Positions 170 to 23,499 of a DNA stretch of 45,335 nt are shown in pieces. Each line of letters starts with the position of its first letter. The first letter of the stretch is position 1. This DNA comes from Minisyncoccia bacterium (lineage in GTDB: Bacteria > Patescibacteriota > Minisyncoccia > Phycocordibacterales > Phycocordibacteraceae). The DNA lies in the NCBI GenBank assembly GCA_041623915.1, contig JBFJWB010000002.1, positions 1 to 45,335 of the forward strand. Reading direction: 5' to 3'. The translations under genes were made by a program, and so were the position numbers. Below the pieces are notes generated by a model that worked only from the letters and a program-made list of their open reading frames with translations, had not been told where the DNA came from and did not search any database.

Positions 170-2272
170 TTAAGTTGGTTGGCTCGCATCTTTTTTATCG
201 TCACTTTCTGCTTCCGGTTCAGGCTTATTTTTTGTAGCAAGTCTCAAAGCGTCCAGTATAACATCAGCCTCCCGCTGATCTTTTGTCTTATTGGCATAAT
301 CATTTATCTTTTTCTTGGATTCACTCAAGCTTTCAGTTATGAAGACTTCAGGTACCCAAGAAGGCGTTAATCTGTCCGCATACTTTCTCTGTTCATGCGC
401 GGCGCTAGACGCTTTTTTGTTTTCTTTTACAATGGCGTCTAAATCTTTAGTGGCTCTGTCAAGTTCTGTAGAATGCTTTAATAATTCTGCAGTCGCAGTC
501 TCAATAGGCTCCTCAAGCTTTTCCAACTCCTTTTGAGCATCTTTAAGTGTGGACACTTGCTCATCTAGCTCAATGCGAGCGGTCTTGATAAGTCCTTCAC
601 GGTCTTGTGTATAAACTTTCTGTGCTTCTAACTGCTCTAGTTTTTCACGCGTCTCTTTAAGTTTTGTTGACCTTATATCCACTTTAGTTTTAACAGCTTC
701 AATACGGGCATTATTCACAGGGTCTGTTTTCAACCGCTCTAGTTTTTCACGCGCTGCATCATGTTCTTTCTCTTTTTTTGTCTTAAGGTCTGACCCCTCC
801 CTCTCTTTTTTTTGCTCCTCTTCGGTCAAATCACGATCTTTAAATGATTTTGCATAATCCACGCGACTTTCTATTGCTTTCTTTTCGGTCGCTACAAAGC
901 CACCCTTGCCACCTCCGCTACCAACAGTAAAGCCAGCCTGTTTAGAAAGTGTTTTATCAACTCCCTTTACGATACCAGAAGACCTTATGTCAAAACTTGC
1001 GCCAGCAACTTTGCCAAGAGTACTGGTTGTGAGCCGCCCTATAACAGGTTTAGAAGCCAGCTTAGATTTCAATGCCCAATTTTGGAGATATTTTGATCCT
1101 GCACCAAGGGTATTCCTTCCAACCAGTGCAGGCGCCCCAAAAGCAAGTGCAGACCCAGATAATTTGTTACCTAGAGTAATGGCTTGATTGGCGCCAAACG
1201 CAGATAGTTTTCGTGCCAATATTGTCACCATAAGCAGTAATCCCATAGCAACCAAGAATGAGAGCAGAATGCCTGCAAACGAACCGACATTTTCCGGATT
1301 AGGTACTGTAACCCAGTCGGTCCATGCATTTCCAGAGACACTAAAACTTTTAAGGAAGTTCACATCAGTAATTACCTTCAGAGCCACGTAGAGCATAAGC
1401 ATAAGTACTGGAGCGGTGATTGTCTGATCAATTAGTTTGCTCCACCACATTTTCGCTACCTTCTCCATTTTTGGCACAGCCATACCTACAAAACCAATTG
1501 GAGCAATAATGATTAGGAATATGAGTATTACAAATCGTGCTATTAAAATAAAAGCGAGCGAAAAGAACACAAACGTAGCTATACAAAAAAGTAGTATCGC
1601 CATAAAACCAGTAAGAAACGGAGACCCTGTTGTAAGCAGATCACCATTTCGGGCATCGCCATATATAGTTGTCATACCTAATTGGCTCATGACTTTGTTA
1701 GAAATCCCCTCTTTCTTTACGCTACCAAATCCCGGCGTTGCCGGAACGCCCCCATTTATTGCTGTATAAAATTGTGTTGCAAAAAGATTTCCCGTGTCAA
1801 TGATAGCTTCTGATATAAACAGCGAGAAGTTAAGAAACACAGCTGCGATAAGAAGTTTAGGTATCATCTTGGTACCAAATCCATATCGTTCAGTATTTAA
1901 AATTGTCATAATGCCAACGGCAAGAAATCCAAAAATCAGTACAATGTTGCCAATGTCGCGCAACACCGTCCACGCAGACTTAACAGACACAAGCCCGTGC
2001 GTGCTGTTCACAATTTCTCCCATACCAACAATTGTGTAATACACTGAGCTGTCTAAAATTACCGCCGAAGCTCCGAATAACCATGCAAACAAACTGGCAA
2101 TCTTGCCCATTACGCCATCTAAGTCGTTACCAGACCCAAACGTAGCAACGTTATTTAGGGACGCTTCACTTGCCCCCCGCGCCTGTGCATACAAAGGGTC
2201 GTGTCCTAAAGCTCCTACTCCAATGCCTGTGAGCAGTACTAACAAAAATAAAATAGGGACAAGACGTTTCAT
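170..2272 (-). CDS. polytopic membrane protein with a long K/E-rich coiled-coil tail; possibly TrbL/VirB6-like
   Basis: ORF 170..2290. The preferred ATG at 2272 (MKRLVPILFLLVLL, signal-like) forms an ATGA overlap with the stop of 2269..4131. Multiple hydrophobic spans in the N-terminal half, then a Gly-rich linker and a heptad-like tail (KLEQLE, KELEKLEE). The family call is pattern-based only. Confidence 0.7.
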   Translation of the reverse strand: MKRLVPILFLLVLLTGIGVGALGHDPLYAQARGASEASLNNVATFGSGNDLDGVMGKIASLFAWLFGASAVILDSSVYYTIVGMGEIVNSTHGLVSVKSAWTVLRDIGNIVLIFGFLAVGIMTILNTERYGFGTKMIPKLLIAAVFLNFSLFISEAIIDTGNLFATQFYTAINGGVPATPGFGSVKKEGISNKVMSQLGMTTIYGDARNGDLLTTGSPFLTGFMAILLFCIATFVFFSLAFILIARFVILIFLIIIAPIGFVGMAVPKMEKVAKMWWSKLIDQTITAPVLMLMLYVALKVITDVNFLKSFSVSGNAWTDWVTVPNPENVGSFAGILLSFLVAMGLLLMVTILARKLSAFGANQAITLGNKLSGSALAFGAPALVGRNTLGAGSKYLQNWALKSKLASKPVIGRLTTSTLGKVAGASFDIRSSGIVKGVDKTLSKQAGFTVGSGGGKGGFVATEKKAIESRVDYAKSFKDRDLTEEEQKKEREGSDLKTKKEKEHDAAREKLERLKTDPVNNARIEAVKTKVDIRSTKLKETREKLEQLEAQKVYTQDREGLIKTARIELDEQVSTLKDAQKELEKLEEPIETATAELLKHSTELDRATKDLDAIVKENKKASSAAHEQRKYADRLTPSWVPEVFITESLSESKKKINDYANKTKDQREADVILDALRLATKNKPEPEAESDDKKDASQPT

Positions 2273-4131
2273 ATTATATATATTCCGCAATGATTGTTCG
2301 TTTTGCTGTCAGCAGGTACTGGCGCAAATGTACCGTCCGGATAATATATCGTTTCATAATAGTATGGAAGGCTAGGTGTTGGCTCAACAGCGTCCGGTCC
2401 ATTAGTAAAACAACATAACTGTATTGTTGTAGACGCGCTTTTGTTTATAAAATCAGCTTGATCATAAAGTGTCCCGCCAAAAATATTATTAATTTCTCCT
2501 GGGGGTCTAAGGTTCGCACCGCCGAAAGGTTCCGCTTGAGACTTCATGTTCGTGACGGCACTTATTTGCGGAGGTAATGATATAAGTTTCTGAACGTCAG
2601 ATATGACTCTCCTCTCAATGTCAATATCATCAATATGCGTCTCTTGAAGCAAGTTTTCTGCGCTAGGCAATGTATCAATACCTACACCAAATACTTTGTT
2701 AGGCGCAATCTGCATATGAGACAATATATCTATACCAAAAGATCTTGAGACATCTATCTCAGCTTGAGCGTCGGTATAGTCATTAAGGATCGGCTGAATA
2801 ATCTTTGTAAGTGTAGCGCTTGCTGAGTCAGTGCCGTTACTTCCGTCACGAACAGTTACCGATGTAGCTTGAGGTAGATCGTTTATAAATGTGGTATCTA
2901 GATTTATAGTGCATGAACCATGCACAGAAGGATTAGGATTTTTACTTTTTGGCGTGTTATTTGGCCCAGCATCTACTCGCCCCTGAGTAATAACGTAACC
3001 ACGACCAAAAGCATCTTTAAGTGTGTTTAGATTATCTGACGCGTCGCTCGCGATCGTGTTAATTGTCTTCCAGCTTGTCTCATAAGTTTTTATATTCTCA
3101 GCAACATCAAGAAGAAGATTAATGACTGCCTCAAATCCACCAGAAGAATCGAACTCATAGGCAGAATTGACTTCGCCAACTGCAGCGACTCCACCAGAAC
3201 CATTCCCTCCTAATACATCTGTAACGAAACCAAGTGCAGCATTTAGAAGAGTCTCACTAATTTCATCAGCATTAACAATACGATCTACATTTGCACCCAA
3301 TACTTTTGATAACTGTGCTTGAATTACAATCCCCGGAGTTTGTACATTAGCAAAAGTACCATCTGATTTGATACAAGGATCAGAGTCTCCTCCGTCGCAA
3401 TTTGGCAAAAATCCATTACCAAACCCAAGAAGGCTTAATCGTGCATTTTCTGAGCTAGAGACTACATTTGCAAGTGTATTACGGGACTCTTGGTACTGAA
3501 GGTATGGATTGTTGTTTGGTTTAGTGGTGAGCGAAAACCACTGACTCCACCCGCCACGAGTGAAGTCCCCATCAAGAAATGCATCAACATCTTCAGGCGG
3601 TGTCTCATCGTATAGTGTGCATCGATTTCTTGCGAGTAATCCACCAAGACTTGTGCTCTGATCATAAGTTTCATTAAGAGCGTCAGCAATACCAGATGCA
3701 AATGGAGAAAAAGAAAATGATGAATTTACGTCCGTAAGTAAATTAATATAAGCATCTCTCTGAGTATCTCCTAACTTGCGAAGATGATTCGCTAAATCTC
3801 CGACGAATTGTGGTTCACCTGATACATTGCCGTTTACAAGTCCAAGAATAGAACTCGTCATTTTGTCTACTTGGTCTTGAGCAAGTTTCCATGCAAGACC
3901 ATCTAAAACAAGCTCTTTGAAAACAAAAGAGCTAGTAGCCTCAGTACTTATTGCTCCGTACTCTCCGCTAATTCTGTTCTCTATACTGTTTAGTATGTGT
4001 GTTGCGGCATTACCAACATCAACGACAGGAAGCCCGTGAGCTCGTTGTGGCACTATAAGAGAAGATACAGGAGCGATAATTATCAACCCAAATATAAGAG
4101 TGATGAGGCGCAATTGTGGAGATGGTGTCAT
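2269..4131 (-). CDS. secreted protein of unknown function (signal peptide; N-terminal VVDVGNAATHILNSIE motif reminiscent of TrbJ/VirB5)
   Basis: 620-aa ORF. Hydrophobic N-terminus LITLIFGLIIIAPVSS. ATGA overlap with the upstream gene at 4128-4131. No catalytic motif recognised. Confidence 0.7.
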   Translation of the reverse strand: MTPSPQLRLITLIFGLIIIAPVSSLIVPQRAHGLPVVDVGNAATHILNSIENRISGEYGAISTEATSSFVFKELVLDGLAWKLAQDQVDKMTSSILGLVNGNVSGEPQFVGDLANHLRKLGDTQRDAYINLLTDVNSSFSFSPFASGIADALNETYDQSTSLGGLLARNRCTLYDETPPEDVDAFLDGDFTRGGWSQWFSLTTKPNNNPYLQYQESRNTLANVVSSSENARLSLLGFGNGFLPNCDGGDSDPCIKSDGTFANVQTPGIVIQAQLSKVLGANVDRIVNADEISETLLNAALGFVTDVLGGNGSGGVAAVGEVNSAYEFDSSGGFEAVINLLLDVAENIKTYETSWKTINTIASDASDNLNTLKDAFGRGYVITQGRVDAGPNNTPKSKNPNPSVHGSCTINLDTTFINDLPQATSVTVRDGSNGTDSASATLTKIIQPILNDYTDAQAEIDVSRSFGIDILSHMQIAPNKVFGVGIDTLPSAENLLQETHIDDIDIERRVISDVQKLISLPPQISAVTNMKSQAEPFGGANLRPPGEINNIFGGTLYDQADFINKSASTTIQLCCFTNGPDAVEPTPSLPYYYETIYYPDGTFAPVPADSKTNNHCGIYII

Positions 4132-5138
4132 GGCTTTTGTGCTGGCTCAATGCTTGCAATAAGGTTCACAAAGCCAGATCCTTGTGCGCCAACTTCAATA
4201 CTGGAATTATTGATTATGTACATTTCAGATATTTTCTGAAAAATTTCAATCATATTGTCTATTGAGTCACGGTACTGTGCAAGAGAAAGCATTGTTGCGA
4301 TAGGATCGGTAGTTACTCGGGAGAAGTCTCCAATCTCATTTCCGATGCGGTAAAGCACATTAATGAGGTCAAGGCTAAGGCCAGACAAATCAGAAGGGAC
4401 AGCAATTGCAACAAGACCCATTGCACTATCAATATAAGCTCTAGAGAGTTTCTCAAGGTTATGAATTGCTTCAGAATCCCCATTTCTCAATGCTAAATCT
4501 AGGTAAAAAAGCTCACTTTCCGACAAATTTCCGCTGTGTGTAGAAAGCACCTCTTCGGCACTTATTGCATATTTACGTAACAGATCTGGTGAGGATGCGA
4601 TAATAGAAAGATCCTCTTTGGTTTTAAAGTTTGAAGCAGGTCTAACGCTCGCCATTAATTGTTGGCGCGCATTCTGGACCAAGGAACTTATTTGTTCAGT
4701 AGATAAATCACCTCCGTTTTCTTGTCTGGCTAAAATGTATTTAGAAAAGAGACTTTGTGCAAAAACGCTCGTGAGAGTGTTTTGAGCTGGCGATTCAGTG
4801 TCGTCAATCTCAACCTTATTTGTACTTATTGGCATGGGGACATTTGCTCGTGGGACAATAAGGCCTCTTGAAACAGCCTCCCCATCACTCATTCCTAACT
4901 GGCGCGTGTCGCGCTCGGTTGGATTTGTGCCATACAGTACCTCCTCCCAATCAGGAAGGCCATCTTTGTCAGTGTCGCGTTGTGCGATTACAGCAAGCAG
5001 TTCAGTTTCAGTTGATGCAACTGCAATTTTCGGAGTACTGGTGTTTTTTGCAAGAGCGTACGCGCCAAAAATTAGGCTTGTAGACACGAAGACAGAGAGT
5101 AAAATCCCAATCTTTTTTGAAATATATGACGCCACCAT
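4128..5138 (-). CDS. membrane-anchored protein with a thrombospondin type-3-like Ca-binding motif
   Basis: 336-aa ORF. N-terminal TM segment IGILLSVFVSTSLIFGAYAL, then DTDKDGLPDWEEVLYGTNP (DxDxDG-type motif common in CPR envelope proteins). First gene of the operon. Confidence 0.7.
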   Translation of the reverse strand: MVASYISKKIGILLSVFVSTSLIFGAYALAKNTSTPKIAVASTETELLAVIAQRDTDKDGLPDWEEVLYGTNPTERDTRQLGMSDGEAVSRGLIVPRANVPMPISTNKVEIDDTESPAQNTLTSVFAQSLFSKYILARQENGGDLSTEQISSLVQNARQQLMASVRPASNFKTKEDLSIIASSPDLLRKYAISAEEVLSTHSGNLSESELFYLDLALRNGDSEAIHNLEKLSRAYIDSAMGLVAIAVPSDLSGLSLDLINVLYRIGNEIGDFSRVTTDPIATMLSLAQYRDSIDNMIEIFQKISEMYIINNSSIEVGAQGSGFVNLIASIEPAQKP

Positions 5139-9234: not shown

Positions 9235-10806
9235 CTATTCAAAGCCGAGAAGGCCTTTTGGACGATACAAGAGAGCTTCGTATACGTGTTCTGCAGTAAC
9301 CATATCTGCTTCAGCTAGATCAGCTATCGTGCGCGCCACTCGGAGTGTTCTGTGATATGCACGTGGTGAAAGATTAAGACGAGAAGCGGCTCCTACAAGA
9401 GCCTGCTTCGCTTTATTATTTACAAAGCTTTTTGTGTCTATATCACGAGACGATAATATAGCGTTATGTGCCCCCGCATTCCCTATTCGTTTGCAAGACT
9501 TTTCCCTTGCTTTCACTACCCTAGTTCGAACAGTTTCAGAAGTCTCACCATTACTAAGTTCGGCCAATGTTTCATGAGGGATTATCGGTACTGATACCCA
9601 AATGTCTAGACGATCTACAATAGGTCGTGATAGTTTTCGTGATTGTTTTAGCGCCTGCCGTACACTTACATCGGCGTTTGCTGATAACGTGTCTGCAGGG
9701 TTCATTGCAGCAACCACCATACAATCTGCGGGAAAAGTAACTCGCCCTCTGGCGCGAGAGACAGTCACTACTCGGTCTTCAAGCGGTTGTCGTAGAGCTT
9801 CTAAAGCGCGTGTGTCAAACTCTGGTAATTCATCTAAAAACAGCACACCTCTGTGAGCAAGTGTTACTTCTCCAGCGCTCGGATTAATTCCGCCACCAAC
9901 AATAGCCACATGTGAGACTGAATGATGTGGGGCGCGAAATGGGGGCCACTCAACTATCGTGTCTCCAGAAAGAAGACCTGCAGTGGAGTGAATTGCGGTT
10001 ACTTCGAGCATTTCTTCATGAGATAGTGCTGGAAGGATGCCTGGCAAAGCACGAGCCAACATAGTCTTGCCAGTTCCGGGCGGACCATAAAATACTATAT
10101 TGTGACGGCCAGCGGCCGCTATCTCCAAAGCGCGTTTTGCACTCTCTTGGCCTTTGATTTCTGATAAATCGCAAATAGGTGCCGGCGTTTGTTCTGCAGG
10201 TTCAGGCAATCTCCTTGTAAGTGCTACATCACCAGACAAATGATCAGTAAGCTCTTTTAGAGTTTTTGGTGTATACACACACATTCCACGTACTAAAAGA
10301 GCCTCTTTGGCATTTTCTTGTGGCACAAATACTTCTCTAATGCCACTGCGATGAGCTGCCAATACTTGCGGTAATACACCACGAACCCTCCGCAATGCTC
10401 CATTTAAAGCAAGCTCACCAACACATAATATTTGTTTTTCTGGCAATTTAACTTCGCCACTGGCTCCAAGATACGCAAGAGCAAGAGCAACATCATAATG
10501 TGAACCGTCTTTACGTAAATCAGCGGGAGATAAGGAAAGTACAATGCGTTTGTTTTGTTGTTTTGGAGAAGTGAATCCGCTGTGTCTTATAGCTGAGGAA
10601 ATACGCTCACGTGCCTCATCAACTGCCTTGTCAGCTAAACCAACAACAGAAAAAGAATGAAGACCGCGTACCAAATCTGCCTCAATTGTAACTAAAGTAG
10701 CTTCCGATCCTGATGGTTGAGAAGCAAATGTTTTTGCATAATTTCCTACGGATTGTTTAACCGAACTCCGCTTAGAACCACTCCCCTTTTTAGGATCCAC
10801 TGACAT
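9235..10806 (-). CDS. comM: YifB/ComM-family Mg-chelatase-like AAA+ protein
   Basis: Lon-like N-terminal domain, Walker [23 protein letters not shown]-terminal [16 protein letters not shown]. Confidence 0.92.
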
Positions 10807-11201: not shown

Positions 11202-12620
11202 TTATTTGGGTCCGGATTGTGATGCCCCTAGACGTCTACTAAGCTCTGTAAAGGCAGATTTGTCGCGCGCAATAATTAGAGTTAATGGATCCCAATAGCC
11301 ATACAAAAGTACACTATTTCCTTGTACGTCACGAAGAATACGTACATCTTTATTATGAATAACCTCATCTTGGAATGAGAGTTGTTTCGTGGCTATTGCC
11401 ACACTAGTGCTAGCTTCTTCTGGAGCATTTTCTATAACAATTTTTGGCGTAGGGTATAAATCATTCAGATCCTTTTCCATACGCGGTTCCCATTCAAGCA
11501 TCCCAGCAAATGTCTCTCGGTATGAAGAAACTCTTAAGATGAAAAATGGACTTGATGAATCGCCTGTATTTATTATTCCAGCAATACTTCCATTAGAGTC
11601 TATGTTGCGGAGCAGTATTTGCGGTGCAGGAAACGCAAGAGAGTAAAACACATCTAGAGTGCCATCTAACAAAAGTAACCGCACGTTGTTAGCAGAAAGA
11701 GGCTTAATCACTGAGGACTGAATATGCTGAAGTAGTGTGGACCCTGATCCAGACACTTTCTCACGCTCATCAACAAAAATAGGTGTCGTAGCAACCACCT
11801 TAGGTAATACAGTTTGCGGATTGTCCTCAAGAAATGAATATATAAAATACGTACTTCCTCCTGCTCCACCAAGTAGAACAAGCCCACCCAAAAGGAATGC
11901 CAAATTTTTCCCAGTGAAATGAAACGTTTTAGTTTCTGTACCTACCGTATTTGGACGAAATGGCGCTGCATCTTGCTCTGCAGCGAGTATTGTTGCTGGC
12001 GACGCTTTTGTTTTTTTAACATGGTCAGAGAAATCACTAGTGTATGTGTGAATTGGGGATGTGTCTTGTGAACTATTTTCATCTCCAACAAGTCTTTCTG
12101 CAGGTGGCGCACCAAGTTTCTGAGGAGGTGTCGACTCAATTGATTCAGGTGTTTTAATGCCCCCGCTCTTTTCTTGTCCAGAGTGACTAGCTACACGAGC
12201 TCTAAGACGTTCTAAGACCTCGTCACGACTCTCTTCAACAGTGTCTTGTGCAAGTAAGTTTCTAGGTGTTTGCAAGCGCTCTTCACGAGCAGTCTCTCTT
12301 AAGTCTCTTCTGTATGTTTTTAATTCACCAATCGCCTCTTTTGGCGATGGCAAGTCAATGTTGATTTCCTGCTGGCTTATTTTTGTTTCCAACTTCTCCG
12401 GTTTCTTCTGTAAATCAAACTTTTCTGGAGACGAAGGTGTTGGTTGCGCAGTTTTAACAAAAGGACTGTCTCCGCCACTTTCTCCAAATGGGACTAGGTC
12501 TGGATGTGCGCCACGCTTTACTGCCGTCGCGTCACCGTCAAACGTGCGGATATATCTCTTCGCATCATTCGTATTGATGTCTGTATCAGGCATTGTTATT
12601 TTGTTCGTCGGAGCGTCCAT
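11202..12620 (-). CDS. hypothetical single-pass membrane protein
   Basis: 472-aa ORF with a central TM segment LAFLLGGLVLLGGAGGSTYFIY. Duplicated I[RH]T[FY]xxD motif (YIRTFDGD, IHTYTSDF). Confidence 0.7.
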   Translation of the reverse strand: MDAPTNKITMPDTDINTNDAKRYIRTFDGDATAVKRGAHPDLVPFGESGGDSPFVKTAQPTPSSPEKFDLQKKPEKLETKISQQEINIDLPSPKEAIGELKTYRRDLRETAREERLQTPRNLLAQDTVEESRDEVLERLRARVASHSGQEKSGGIKTPESIESTPPQKLGAPPAERLVGDENSSQDTSPIHTYTSDFSDHVKKTKASPATILAAEQDAAPFRPNTVGTETKTFHFTGKNLAFLLGGLVLLGGAGGSTYFIYSFLEDNPQTVLPKVVATTPIFVDEREKVSGSGSTLLQHIQSSVIKPLSANNVRLLLLDGTLDVFYSLAFPAPQILLRNIDSNGSIAGIINTGDSSSPFFILRVSSYRETFAGMLEWEPRMEKDLNDLYPTPKIVIENAPEEASTSVAIATKQLSFQDEVIHNKDVRILRDVQGNSVLLYGYWDPLTLIIARDKSAFTELSRRLGASQSGPK

Positions 12621-19731: not shown

Positions 19732-19805
19732 GCGGGATTAGTTTAATGGTAGAACTTCAGTTTTCCAAACTGATAGCAGGAGTTCGATTCTCCTATCCCG
19801 CACCA
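19732..19805 (+). tRNA. tRNA-Gly (anticodon TCC), CCA encoded
   Basis: Acceptor gcgggat/atcccgc, anticodon loop ttTCCaa, T-arm aggag-ttcgatt-ctcct, 3' acca. Confidence 0.9.
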
Positions 19806-20149: not shown

Positions 20150-20160
20150 ATATACAAACG

Positions 20161-20190
20161 AAAATAGCCACCTTTTCGGGTGGCTATTTT
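20161..20190. terminator. bidirectional terminator downstream of the orphan hup 3' fragment
   Basis: aaaatagccacc-ttttcg-ggtggctatttt. Confidence 0.7.
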
Positions 20191-20208
20191 CGTGAAAGAC
20201 GCACTGAT

Positions 20209-20305
20209 TATTTAACTGCGTCCTTGAGTGCTTTTGCGGCGCGGAACTTAGGAGTTCGTGTAGCAGCAATCTGAATAGTCTCACCAGTACGAGGGTTACG
20301 TCCTT
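20209..20305 (-). pseudogene. orphan 3' fragment of hup (last 31 codons); left copy of the 97-bp direct repeat
   Basis: 97/97 identical to 23114-23210. Embedded in the chimeric ORF 20208..20411, whose N-terminal 36 aa show no HU similarity. Confidence 0.85.
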
Positions 20306-20499
20306 TTGGCATGTGACTTATGAGAAATATTCTCACGAGGCCGTCTCGGCTCTGTTTCTTGATGGTGTACTCAAATGAACTTATGGAACGCCCGAACAAT
20401 CGCAAATCCATAGTGTGTTAGCAAGAAGGTTAATGTGTCATTGTGACGGAATGACGCGTCACATCAAGTGAAGAGATTGTGATAGAGGAGCTTCCCTAA

Positions 20500-21306
20500 T
20501 CAGATATTCTCTAGCTTTTTGCCACCTGCCCACAACAATTCAAAGATTGCGCTCATGGTTTGTCGTATCTCTATATTTTCAATAATAGTAGTAATCATGG
20601 GTTTTTTGAATGACGTGAGCGCTATCTTGTTTGCATAAATAATAATTTGCGCGGGGAGTGTGAATGTGTCGTCAGGATATACGCGTCGCTCAGTCAGGCG
20701 AGATCGATCGCGTTTAATGATTTCCGTATGAGAAAGAGTCTTGGCGCCTGTCTTTGGGAACGGGCCAATAATACGTGTATGGATACCGAGCGTTACTTGT
20801 TGTTGTATTTGATTCGACAAAAGCGTTAGTTGGTCTGGCTCAACATCATCAATGGCGGAACGAATTAGGTTTATATCCATTTTCTCATGCAGTATATCTT
20901 TATAAAGGTCAGTAAGGCTTGCTGTTCCCTGTAGGATACGTACTCCGGGTATTTGAGATGATGCAGTGTAGTCAGAGATAAGAGAGCCCATGACCCCTTG
21001 AATTGTGCTCTTTGAAATCTCCGCGCGCTCGAGTTGTTTACGTGCTAGCTCTTGAATAGCAAATGGATGGGTAGGTACAAATTGAGCTGGTTTACCAGGA
21101 AGCTCCTCTTTTGATACAAGGTTAGCGTCTATAAGACCTTCAAGGATTTTGTATATATAGGGGCGAGAAAGTTCAGTGATTTTAGCAAGGCGCCCAGCTT
21201 GCATGGCCCCCTTTCGGATAAGGGGCTCATACACAAGGACCTGTTCTTTGGTAAGCCCGGCCGCAGAAAGTGCTTGAAAATACAATGTGTCAATTTTTGC
21301 TGTCAT
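20500..21306 (-). CDS. TrmB-family winged-helix transcriptional regulator
   Basis: N-terminus LSAAGLTKEQVLVYEPLIRKGAMQAGRLAKITELSRPYIYKILEGLIDANLV is the TrmB-type wHTH pattern. 268 aa. GC is host-like. Confidence 0.7.
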   Translation of the reverse strand: MTAKIDTLYFQALSAAGLTKEQVLVYEPLIRKGAMQAGRLAKITELSRPYIYKILEGLIDANLVSKEELPGKPAQFVPTHPFAIQELARKQLERAEISKSTIQGVMGSLISDYTASSQIPGVRILQGTASLTDLYKDILHEKMDINLIRSAIDDVEPDQLTLLSNQIQQQVTLGIHTRIIGPFPKTGAKTLSHTEIIKRDRSRLTERRVYPDDTFTLPAQIIIYANKIALTSFKKPMITTIIENIEIRQTMSAIFELLWAGGKKLENI

Positions 21307-21408
21307 AAAATAGTTTACATTTTTAAGCTATAGTGAAAATATGCCCATTTCTATTCATTTTTTAGCATACAAAAGCCACAAATTAGTGTCAATAGATAAT
21401 ACCAAGTA

Positions 21409-21436
21409 TTGACTCTTACATAAAACCTGCTATGAT
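21409..21436 (+). promoter_or_regulatory. promoter TTGACT-16-TGcTATGAT (extended -10)
   Basis: Sits 35 nt upstream of the ATG at 21472. SD aagggag at 21458-64. Confidence 0.6.
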
Positions 21437-21471
21437 TAGTCTCAGACTCAGTTCAAAAAGGGAGTAGTACC

Positions 21472-21811
21472 ATGAAATATTTTGGCTTTGCGTTGGCGGA
21501 CTCGATGTTCGTCGGGGAGTGTGTTATCGTCCGCCGTAATCTTACGGTGGACGAGGTAAAGCTGGCGGTTCAGGAGGGTGTCGAGCCCTGTCTGAACCCG
21601 TCGCACCAGGCAACCATCAATGCCATGCGTTCGCGCTATGGCATTGATGTGGCGATCCCAGACGCTCCCCCCCCGGGTGTGTCTGGGTCACGGTGACTCG
21701 CTCATAGTTATGGGAGTCCGCGGCTTACCGCGGCTTACAAAAAGCCACGAATACAGCGATGAAGAGATCGCGGGAGCGACCTTCACATTCTCTCTGTACT
21801 CGGTCTCCTGA
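21472..21811 (+). pseudogene. DUF1874-like (STIV B116 / AcrIII-1 ring-nuclease family) gene interrupted by a frameshift in a C8 run
   Basis: ORFs 21472..21696 and 21620..21811 are in frames differing by +1. Removing one C from the run at 21667-21674 gives one 112-aa protein, ...CLNPSHQATINAMRSRYGIDVAIPDAPPRVCLGHGDSLIVMGVRGLPRLTKSHEYSDEEIAGATFTFSLYSVS. This follows the DUF1874 pattern (conserved His, GD-LIV strand, EE...F-F C-terminus). Confidence 0.6.
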
Positions 21812-21923: not shown

Positions 21924-21985
21924 GGAAGTTTACTTCCCCTATCTATTGAGCGCTTAAACAAATGTTTGAGCTCTCATAGATACTT
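21924..21985 (+). repeat. 62-bp double-palindrome repeat, copy 1
   Basis: 60/62 identical to 22997-23058. Lies 31 nt upstream of the ATG at 22017. Confidence 0.85.
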
Positions 21986-22016
21986 TGTTCTTTTGCATTA
22001 AATAAAAGGAAAAAAA

Positions 22017-22712
22017 ATGAAAGAATTTTCTTTCAGTAGAAGGGGGCAGCGGCAGAGCATTCTGTTAGTTGACGTTTTTCGTATTGTGGGTGGAGAGCGA
22101 GTCCCGCTCGTCTACGATTCCATCCCGACAGAGGCTTTCTTCCCTGTTGTTTTCATCATCGGGCGCAATGTTAACAGAGCTCGCGCCCGAGCCGAGGATT
22201 TTATTAGCAAAAATCCTAGTTTTTCAGGAGGAGTCCTCTATGAGGACGATGGTTCGCTGTCATGTGGAGACAGCGCAACTCTCCTGCTCGTCAACCTCCC
22301 TGAAGTGGGGATGGTTGACGAGCCTCGTGTGATGAAAGCTAAGGCCGCAAAGACGGCCAAACAGCTTGCCGAGCGTGAGGAACAACTCAGGAAAAGTATA
22401 ATAGCCGGGCTCTCAGGACGATGGTTGTTAAACGCCCTGAGGGATGACAAGCACCCCTTCGTGCTGCTTATCGATCTGGTGGTCGGCTGCTCCACGGGCA
22501 CCATCTCGTGGAATACCTTACGTTCGGAAGAACGTAAGGTCGTAATTCAGCTTACTGCCCTAAACCAAAAGCTCGGGAAAGCATACATAGCCCTCTACTA
22601 TGGAAGCCCAGAGCTGCAGGAAGAACTGCGCAAGAACTTTCTTGCGGTGAAAGAGGAGGTGATAATGGCGGCAGCTGAAATTTCTTCTAACATAAAAACA
22701 AAGGAGAGTTAA
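22017..22712 (+). CDS. hypothetical protein (231 aa), high-GC orphan
   Basis: ATG preceded by aaaagga. Two-domain layout with a K/A-rich linker (KAKAAKTAKQLAEREEQLRK). No motif recognised. Confidence 0.6.
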   Translation: MKEFSFSRRGQRQSILLVDVFRIVGGERVPLVYDSIPTEAFFPVVFIIGRNVNRARARAEDFISKNPSFSGGVLYEDDGSLSCGDSATLLLVNLPEVGMVDEPRVMKAKAAKTAKQLAEREEQLRKSIIAGLSGRWLLNALRDDKHPFVLLIDLVVGCSTGTISWNTLRSEERKVVIQLTALNQKLGKAYIALYYGSPELQEELRKNFLAVKEEVIMAAAEISSNIKTKES

Positions 22713-22714
22713 GA

Positions 22715-22846
22715 ATGGACAAGAAAATGTCTAGGAGGACCAAGCATGGTGGGAAGACAGAACGGTGGGATACCCACCGTAACCTGAAGGTTGCGCGCAA
22801 GCGCAACCGGAAGAACGCACGTCGGATCGCCATTCTGGAGGGGTAA
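22715..22846 (+). CDS. 43-aa highly basic peptide (MDKKMSRRTKHGGKTERWDTHRNLKVARKRNRKNARRIAILEG)
   Basis: SD aaggag at 22701-06 inside the end of the upstream ORF. The ATG is 2 nt after the upstream stop, which suggests translational coupling. Below the ORF-track cutoff. Confidence 0.4.
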   Translation: MDKKMSRRTKHGGKTERWDTHRNLKVARKRNRKNARRIAILEG

Positions 22847-22996: not shown

Positions 22997-23058
22997 GGAA
23001 GTTTACTTCCCCTATCTATTGAGTGCTTAAACAAATGTTTGAGCACTCATAGATACTT
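22997..23058 (+). repeat. 62-bp double-palindrome repeat, copy 2
   Basis: Contains GGGGAAGT-TT-ACTTCCCC (22995-23012) and TGAGTGCTTAAACAAATGTTTGAGCACTCA (23020-23049). Confidence 0.85.
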
Positions 23059-23067
23059 ATTTTTTAA

Positions 23068-23098
23068 CAAAAGACCGCCAGCTTGCTGGCGGTCTTTT
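23068..23098. terminator. bidirectional terminator just downstream of the intact hup
   Basis: aaaagaccgccag-cttg-ctggcggtctttt. Confidence 0.75.
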
Positions 23099-23112
23099 GC
23101 GATAAGTAACGG

Positions 23113-23385
23113 CTATTTAACTGCGTCCTTGAGTGCTTTTGCGGCGCGGAACTTAGGAGTTCGTGTAGCAGCAATCTGAATAGTCTCACCAGTACGAGGG
23201 TTACGTCCTTGACGCGCTGGGCGTGCCTTTGTTGCGAAGATACCTAACCCTGCGATGGATACTTCCTCTCCTTGAGAAAGTGCCATAGTTACGTTCTCAA
23301 TAATTGTTTCAACAGCGCGCTCTGCGTCGGCCTTAGTCGAACCGAGCGTGTCTTGAACCTTGCTCACAATGTCTGCTTTGTTCAT
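23113..23385 (-). CDS. hup: HU-family DNA-binding protein
   Basis: MNKADIVSKVQ...[47 protein letters not shown] at 23385 is preferred over the extended ORF start at 23460. 90 aa. Confidence 0.92.
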   Translation of the reverse strand: MNKADIVSKVQDTLGSTKADAERAVETIIENVTMALSQGEEVSIAGLGIFATKARPARQGRNPRTGETIQIAATRTPKFRAAKALKDAVK

Positions 23386-23499
23386 GGAGTTTTTTTGACT
23401 ACTAAACCCCGCGGCCGATACGGAGGCGGGTATGGGGGCTAGTATACCTAGCCATTTCAATGGCTCAAGTGGTTGACATGGATAGGAAAGATGTCTTTA

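Follow-up and report, generated by a model that had tools for sequence, protein, structure and literature searches.

Ring nucleases of the DUF1874 family have so far been described from viruses of archaea, from certain phages and from a small number of type III CRISPR loci. The family's structural founders, STIV B116 (2J85) and AFV3-109 (2J6B), are crenarchaeal virus proteins, and AcrIII-1 (SIRV1 gp29; 6SCF, 2X4I) is a viral ring nuclease of cyclic tetra-adenylate (cA4). In SIRV1 gp29, H47 is the catalytic general acid, R85 of the lid locks the closed dimer, and the side chains of N8, S11, N13, S49, T50, R66 and Q81 contact cA4 (10.1101/778746). The cellular enzyme Crn2 is defined by a type III CRISPR locus or by fusion to Csx1, as in the Marinitoga Csx1-Crn2 protein (8Y7F, 8Y7G). 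One survey found Crn2 in only seven prokaryotic genomes (PMC12409355). Here we describe a gene with the same predicted fold in a 45,335-bp stretch of a Minisyncoccia genome (contig JBFJWB010000002.1), hereafter called the window, to whose positions all coordinates refer. The gene (21472..21811, + strand) spans 112 codons when a run of C within it is read as C7, and was assembled as two pieces, 21472..21696 and 21620..21811. The reading that we favour, with some but not great confidence, is that it encodes a His-dependent ring nuclease of cyclic oligoadenylate (cOA), carried as anti-defence cargo on a mobile cassette, and that this copy has been either inactivated or mis-read.

A divergent member of the DUF1874 fold family

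The two pieces are open reading frames (ORFs) of 74 aa (21472..21696, +) and 63 aa (21620..21811, +, in the next frame), whose overlap contains eight successive C, CCCCCCCC, at 21667..21674 (+). Deletion of one C joins them, exactly as the original prediction had it, into a 112-aa ORF (MKYFGF...SLYSVS), and the repaired protein has 688 database matches of ~112–115 aa with 97–100% length coverage, 65–75% identity and E values of ~1e-47. The point at which the frame shifts falls inside a motif, P63-x-x-P66-P67-R-V69, that is invariant in an alignment of 45 relatives. Given full-length homologues in such number and a junction within an invariant motif, the fusion is not a product of chance.

Membership of DUF1874, as proposed in the original prediction, is upheld by three kinds of evidence: the predicted structure, matches of the family profile in the PDB and sub-threshold matches of relatives to PF08960. 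The AlphaFold2 monomer model, built on the family alignment, has a predicted local distance difference test score (pLDDT) of 87.8 and a predicted template modelling score (pTM) of 0.80. Its top 16 Foldseek matches in the PDB are all DUF1874 structures (STIV B116, SIRV1 ORF114/AcrIII-1, AFV3-109 and Marinitoga Csx1-Crn2; E 3.6e-6 to 3.5e-4, template modelling (TM) scores 0.67–0.78, probability 1.00), after which there is a gap, the next match having E > 0.3; the superposition on AcrIII-1 and B116 expected from the original prediction was thus obtained, and with DUF1874 structures only. A structure search of BFVD gave top matches that include STIV B116, a protein of Stygiolobus rod-shaped virus and an uncharacterized protein of phage THSA-485A, which may be a further AcrIII-1 homologue. 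At the level of sequence, a broad profile made from 64 diverse clade members (profile A2) was searched against 177,635 PDB sequences, and its top five matches were AFV3-109 (2j6b, E 8e-4), SIRV1 ORF114 (2x4i, 2.3e-3), two Csx1-Crn2 entries (8y7f, 0.037; 8y6z, 0.058) and AcrIII-1 H47A (6scf, 0.068), matches that are weak but consistent. A narrow profile (A1) found AFV3-109 only (E 0.027). In the database, some relatives come with a precomputed assignment to PF08960.

We place the protein, on this model-based evidence, as a divergent member of the STIV B116 / AcrIII-1 / Crn2 fold family. It resembles AcrIII-1 in size (~110 aa) and in fold (TM 0.70–0.78), and differs from it in sharing only ~18–20% identity. 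Of the structural founders, STIV B116 is the best Foldseek match (E 3.6e-6) and AFV3-109 the best profile match, both at ~18–21% identity. With Crn2 the protein has in common the fold (TM 0.67–0.70), an aligned His and its occurrence in a cellular genome; in contrast to Crn2 it stands alone, with no cas genes within 45 kb or in the homologue contexts that we inspected.

Several results weigh against this placement. A Pfam scan of the repaired 112-aa sequence, by which the original prediction might have been confirmed, gave no PF08960 match at E ≤ 1, so that the gathering threshold was not reached, and phmmer found no match to the protein among PDB sequences. The 29 of the 45 relatives that do match PF08960 (best E 6.4e-4) remain below the Pfam gathering threshold. 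Alignment by hhalign of the narrow family alignment with the single gp29 sequence did not succeed, the profile being too little diverse. As well, scans of PHROG, PADLOC and NCBIfam assigned the repaired protein to no significant family.

The frameshift in the C tract

The family motif at the junction, A-P-P-R-V, requires seven C (GCT CCC CCC CGG), which makes C7 the ancestral state and the C8 of the window a +1 insertion. Taken at face value, the additional C would end the product after residue 67 plus seven out-of-frame residues, and the resulting 74-aa protein, lacking strand 4, the lid, helix 3 and the C-terminal strand, would be inactive. The question is whether the insertion is real. We consider a real, very recent slippage mutation somewhat likelier than a consensus error, because homopolymers elsewhere in the window read cleanly and because disrupted copies of the gene occur in other genomes. 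On the first point, the long intact ORFs of the window contain 55 A/T runs of six or more and 13 G/C runs of 5–6 without a single broken frame, which argues against a general tendency of the assembly to homopolymer errors, and we noticed no further split gene in the window's ORF table. On the second, one homologue (L082, 1280–1700) carries several frameshifts and an insertion, another (L084, 9950–10340) a 12-codon deletion with a frameshift, and a third (L083, 9950–10380) a single frameshift; the break in a fourth (L055) is merely a run of N. A C7 tract is in itself a mutational hot spot.

The rival possibility is that the additional C arose as an error when the homopolymer was sequenced or assembled, in which case the tract is truly C7 and the gene intact and expressed. 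We regard this as a real possibility, if somewhat short of an even chance. The frame downstream of the shift is fully open and keeps every family-invariant residue, and divergence does not rise across the shift, identity to the family consensus being 0.87 on its 5′ side and 0.85 on its 3′ side. The window copy deviates at two of the 59 columns that are conserved at ≥ 90%, which is inside the normal family range (0–6 in other members), and neither the gene nor the island on which it lies (see below) bears any other sign of age or decay. The frameshifted L083 comes from a metagenome-assembled genome (MAG) of the MFD series, which we take to be a long-read assembly. Finally, the C8 run is the longest G/C run and the sole G/C homopolymer of seven or more in the 45,335 bp, the next longest G/C runs having six, so the error rate at such runs cannot be calibrated from the window, a point that tells against a real mutation. 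An exact-pattern scan of JGI metagenome contigs for the same allele with C6–C10 returned none, and an exact look-up of the neighbouring TrmB-like protein, made for an independent view of the C tract, found no identical record in other assemblies.

That the tract is a contingency switch, working by slipped-strand change between C7 and C8, by transcriptional slippage or by a +1 ribosomal slip on CCC-CCC, is very unlikely: the tract does lie within the coding region, A-P-P-R-V would, by the sequence, be exactly restored if tRNA-Pro slipped by +1 between overlapping CCC codons, and defence and anti-defence genes are plausible targets of on/off switching, but at this site, where P-P-R is written with mixed codons, the C runs of all eight relatives inspected have five C at most, and a second tract or switch-like feature was not seen in the window. 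The lack of a C tract in relatives makes it a lineage-specific accident of codon choice, and the phase-variable option of the original prediction is accordingly disfavoured as a conserved switch. For the same reason a conserved programmed frameshift was rejected.

Active site and putative function

Residue equivalences with AcrIII-1 were taken from alignments to the hidden Markov model of profile A2. The family His, H45, is invariant in the 45 close relatives, though a few distant clade members are without it. Its partners in the alignments are H47 of 2x4i, the corresponding His in 2j6b and 8y7f and, in the H47A construct 6scf, the substituted Ala; the catalytic His anticipated in the original prediction is thus present in the alignment. 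It had been described as a conserved His after the second strand. Its conservation stands, but in the model it follows a third short strand (38–40) and opens helix 43–56, as H47 of AcrIII-1 stands at the start of helix 2. Two further residues of AcrIII-1 have conserved counterparts, T50 in T48 and R85 in R87, the latter in the lid loop within an invariant LPRL, and R66 aligns two positions from the family's R68. The four conserved blocks of the clade, FGFALADSMF, NPSHxAT, PPRV and MGVRGLPRLTDRHEY, coincide with the four ligand-contacting segments of AcrIII-1; the lid region is the least confident part of the model (pLDDT 75–77). It is plausible from these alignments that the clade has a His-dependent nucleotide-binding site at the position of that of AcrIII-1, whose ligand need not be cA4.

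Intact members of the clade may act as homodimeric ring nucleases that would close a mobile lid over a bound cOA, be it cA4 or a related ring, and cleave it, the general acid being the conserved His, and so switch off cOA-dependent immune effectors. The gene would then serve small mobile elements as anti-defence cargo.

A number of findings weigh against such a role. N8 and Q81 of AcrIII-1 are not conserved, aligning with F6 and G81, and its N13, S11 and S49 align with S11, A9 and A47, respectively; with these contact residues replaced, the ligand could differ from cA4. The lid motif MGVRGLPRLTDRHEY is longer than the lid of AcrIII-1 and strictly conserved in the clade; the window copy has K90 and S91 in the lid loop at positions where 96% of relatives have D and 98% have R. 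The 45 kb of the window contain no genes for Cas10, a CARF effector, a cyclase, type III CRISPR or another cOA-based system; no cas, CARF or cyclase genes were present in four annotated homologue contexts, and the PADLOC matches listed for 104 neighbour representatives are scattered defence-like ones, with no type III CRISPR and no cGAS/DncV-like nucleotidyltransferase (CD-NTase) among them. Candidate phyla radiation (CPR) bacteria, to which most carriers of the gene belong, have been reported to lack CRISPR-Cas for the most part (PMC4742961), and this, together with the lack of CRISPR linkage, counts against a housekeeping role like that of Crn2. Doubt also comes from work on DUF1874 itself: a study in a native system questions whether viral DUF1874 proteins are anti-CRISPRs in vivo and reports another activity, inhibition of a host lysine methyltransferase by SIRV2 gp37 (10.1101/2023.01.10.523387), a warning that the family can have other roles.

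Such findings would be expected if the protein had the DUF1874 fold but were no cOA ring nuclease, and instead bound another nucleotide, made protein–protein contacts or acted as a regulator together with the TrmB-like protein encoded next to it. The sub-threshold Pfam matches would fit as well, as would the additional invariant lid residues R83, D90, R91, H92, E93 and Y94, which are unlike the AcrIII-1 residues aligned with them. We nonetheless think this alternative less likely than not, since conservation extends to the catalytic His, the lid Arg and a Thr two to three positions past the His, and since the conserved blocks fall on the ligand-contacting segments. In addition, a SAVED-domain protein, of a type that senses cyclic oligonucleotides, is encoded on one syntenic island, and on a viral contig the gene lies beside an anti-restriction gene (both described below). 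A bolder version of the ring-nuclease reading, which we put forward as quite improbable, is that the CPR clade is a distinct DUF1874 enzyme with a remodelled, strictly conserved lid (MGVRGLPRLTDRHEY) and a changed pocket, that it is carried in small mobile cassettes under a TrmBL2-like repressor and degrades a cyclic-oligonucleotide signal other than that of the cell's own type III CRISPR, for example one of the SAVED or cyclic oligonucleotide-based anti-phage signalling system (CBASS) type or one of the epibiont's host, and that it has been switched off here by its slippage-prone C tract.

Distribution of the clade

A HMMER search of 1.84 billion representative proteins recovered 323 clusters (at 50% identity) with E ≤ 1e-3, and the gene was located in 73 species genomes, most of them Saccharibacteria or other CPR. 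The few carriers outside the CPR are Bryobacterales, Melainabacteria, Gammaproteobacteria and cyanobacteria. The same fold with its catalytic His, so far known from viruses and few CRISPR loci, is accordingly predicted here for at least 323 clusters and 73 species-level genomes. Public records name the clade's proteins ‘hypothetical protein’ (PIR93823.1 is an intact member), no NCBIfam model covers them, and AcrIII-1 goes unmentioned in the top-ranked full-text literature on Patescibacteria, Saccharibacteria and the candidate phyla radiation. We regard this large unannotated CPR clade as being of moderate interest, to which the window copy, a broken or mis-sequenced gene on a tidy, very small repeat-flanked insertion, adds little. 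Should the clade prove active, one would have to ask which cyclic-nucleotide signals are important to ultrasmall epibionts and to their mobile elements.

Like AcrIII-1, the clade occurs on mobile DNA, with the gene on five IMG/VR contigs and distant relatives on three Planktothrix plasmids; unlike AcrIII-1, it is found mainly on CPR chromosomes, beside a TrmBL2-like regulator. Its base composition sets it apart from its surroundings. In 68 of 69 loci its G+C content is higher than that of the flanking DNA, the mean difference being 13 points. The G+C content at third codon positions (GC3) is 0.70 in the gene and 0.47 in its neighbours, and the gene has the higher value in 67 of the 69 loci (L012–L084). 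The high GC3 persists even though the proteins are only 50–75% identical to that of the window; frequent transfer might explain it, as might selection acting on the nucleotide sequence.

Some individual loci deserve mention. On a 68-kb viral contig (IMG/VR 3300036971_000112; L088, 10001–11321), the homologue is followed directly by a gene for an anti-restriction protein (phrog_7245, E 7e-68), and a phage primase and a helicase are encoded nearby. Plasmid p2 of Planktothrix agardhii (L092, 5698–6099) carries a distant homologue (35% identity) among small genes of unknown function (ASCH, DUF6876, DUF2997, DUF1257), with an HU gene and a parA-like pair in the vicinity. In a Kaiserbacteria locus (L029, 9596–11621), the 39-nt repeat TCTATTCAGCTCGCGAAATGTCGTGGGTTGATCGAGTTA occurs four times around the homologue, one copy ending 26 nt before the tblastn match of the homologue (locus position 10001).

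A small island at the 3′ end of the HU gene

The small island on which the original prediction placed the gene is borne out by perfect 97-bp direct repeats spaced 2,905 bp apart, which bracket the TrmB-like gene, the DUF1874-like gene and two ORFs of 231 and 43 aa. The right copy (23114..23210, −) forms the 3′ end of an intact HU gene (23113..23460) and is followed by a terminator hairpin at 23068–23099; the left copy (20209..20305, −) holds the last 32 HU codons in displaced form and has a different terminator hairpin of its own (20158–20193). The repeat starts within the HU stop codon, at its second base. Because such a start in the stop codon, with a separate terminator for each copy, is the signature of 3′-end integration with restoration of the gene, it is likely that the island integrated into the HU 3′ end. 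It resembles integrative elements that bring a replacement gene 3′ end and duplicate their attachment (att) site in that repeats spanning the last 32 HU codons leave an intact gene restored, the former terminator stays with the displaced fragment, a tRNA gene is near (tRNA-Gly(TCC), 19732–19805), and the cargo is of foreign composition. GC3 is 0.66 in the DUF1874-like gene and 0.55 in the 231-aa ORF, as against ~0.35 in host genes; that of the regulator (0.38) is host-like.

Unlike those elements, the island is only 2.9 kb long and has no integrase or replication gene recognisable in Pfam, PHROG and PADLOC scans, which speaks against a mobile cassette. The 231-aa ORF (22017..22712, +) was considered as an integrase or replication protein and rejected, since a search of 5.8 billion proteins returned no homologue and scans of Pfam, PHROG and PADLOC no match; its single-sequence AlphaFold2 model (pLDDT 42.7) is unusable. 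The 43-aa ORF that follows (22715–22846, +) is very basic and has its own Shine-Dalgarno sequence. No viral genes were recognised on the 2.9-kb insertion. We can only conjecture that integration proceeded by homologous recombination, or in trans through a host recombinase.

Integration has been weighed against the unlikely alternative that the island is a 2.9-kb circle that shares 97 bp with HU and was threaded into the chromosome by the assembler. An episome of this kind would yield an identical assembly graph, and its circular junction would read ...CGATAAGTAACGGC + 97 bp + TTGGCATGTGACTT...; the repeats are perfect and shorter than typical reads, the element is without an integrase, and no second duplicated HU 3′ end was found in the related loci searched. 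The stop-codon start of the repeat and the separate terminators nonetheless carry the signature of integration, and this site of the chromosome holds the same two genes in a related genome. That genome, a Saccharibacteria MAG (L003/L013), has the backbone order of the window, NYN, CCA-adding enzyme and UPF0102 genes, then HU, RNase Y and ClpP; at the site in question a TrmB-like gene stands divergent from a DUF1874-like gene of 74% identity, followed by different cargo. A shared site with different cargo points, as far as gene order goes, to a hot spot for such cassettes. Neither an exact-pattern scan of JGI metagenome contigs for an empty HU site nor a blastn comparison of the island with plasmids gave a match.

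Other small features of the island include a 69-nt element, present in only two copies in the window, 93% identical to each other: the first (21924..21992, +) lies between the DUF1874-like gene and the 231-aa ORF, the second (22997..23065, +) after the 231-aa and 43-aa ORFs, so that the two flank these ORFs like cassette boundaries. Each consists of a GGAAGTTTACTTCC hairpin and a palindrome with arms of ~20 nt. At the left end, a chimeric 67-aa ORF (20208–20411, −) opens with 35 novel residues and continues into the displaced HU C-terminus, and a weak promoter-like site (20306–20333) is found on the strand opposite to it.

In the Saccharibacteria MAG, the different cargo (L013, 10480–13616; the same in L003) includes, besides unknown ORFs, a TM-SAVED protein of 189 aa and a radical-SAM enzyme that is weakly pVip-like. 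Four loci, from different CPR phyla, have the radical-SAM gene 0–3 kb downstream of the homologue; it is 61–81% identical among L013, L034 and L053 and ~40% in L057.

The genome around the island is CPR-like, as the original prediction had supposed: the window encodes type IV pilus proteins, ComEC, RNase Y, ClpP and NusA, and its RNase Y is 75–76% identical to those of Saccharibacteria and Patescibacteria MAGs. Its ORFs of 706, 620, 336 and 472 aa (170–5138 (−) and 11202–12620 (−)) have no Pfam or PADLOC match.

Promoter-like sites and the TrmBL2-like regulator

Divergent from the DUF1874-like gene is a gene for a 268-aa winged-helix regulator (20500..21306, −), which matches PF01978 (TrmB winged helix) at 5e-12 and, in a profile comparison, the TrmBL2 structures 5bpd and 5box over residues 22–185 (E 1.3e-6). 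We had considered it as a cOA sensor of the CARF or SAVED type, and rejected this, the protein being TrmBL2-like and its resemblance to Csa3/CasR being confined to the helix-turn-helix. A TrmB-like gene is the only recurrent neighbour of the family: it lies within 6 kb of the homologue in 31 of 73 loci (median offset −921 bp) and directly adjacent in about a dozen. Other neighbours are variable, among them a SpoU methylase, radical SAM and housekeeping genes. The nearest relatives of the TrmB-like protein in the window are not encoded beside a DUF1874-like gene, so the pairing holds at the level of the family and not for strict orthologues. The TrmBL2-like protein probably controls expression of the DUF1874-like gene.

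That the DUF1874-like gene has its own extended −10 promoter and Shine-Dalgarno sequence, as originally predicted, was confirmed as far as a consensus scan can do so. The promoter-like site (21409..21436, +), which is sigma-70-like, reads TTGACT, 16 nt, TGcTATGAT and matches the consensus at 10 of 12 positions plus the TG, a consensus match only; a GGGAG (21460–21464, +) stands 7 nt upstream of the ATG. The TrmB-like gene has a divergent promoter-like site (21364..21392, −; TTGACA, 17 nt, TATGCT), and the −35 boxes of the two lie back to back.

The leaders of the homologues show a feature of their own. Among the 55 nt upstream of the gene in 68 loci, many contain a short GC-rich hairpin just 5′ of the Shine-Dalgarno sequence. 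Compared with the leaders of neighbouring genes, their mean minimum free energy is lower (−10.3 versus −6.7 kcal/mol; Mann–Whitney p 5e-8; z −1.36 versus −0.83) and their G+C content higher (0.46 versus 0.38). The corresponding hairpin of the window (21417–21461) is weak.

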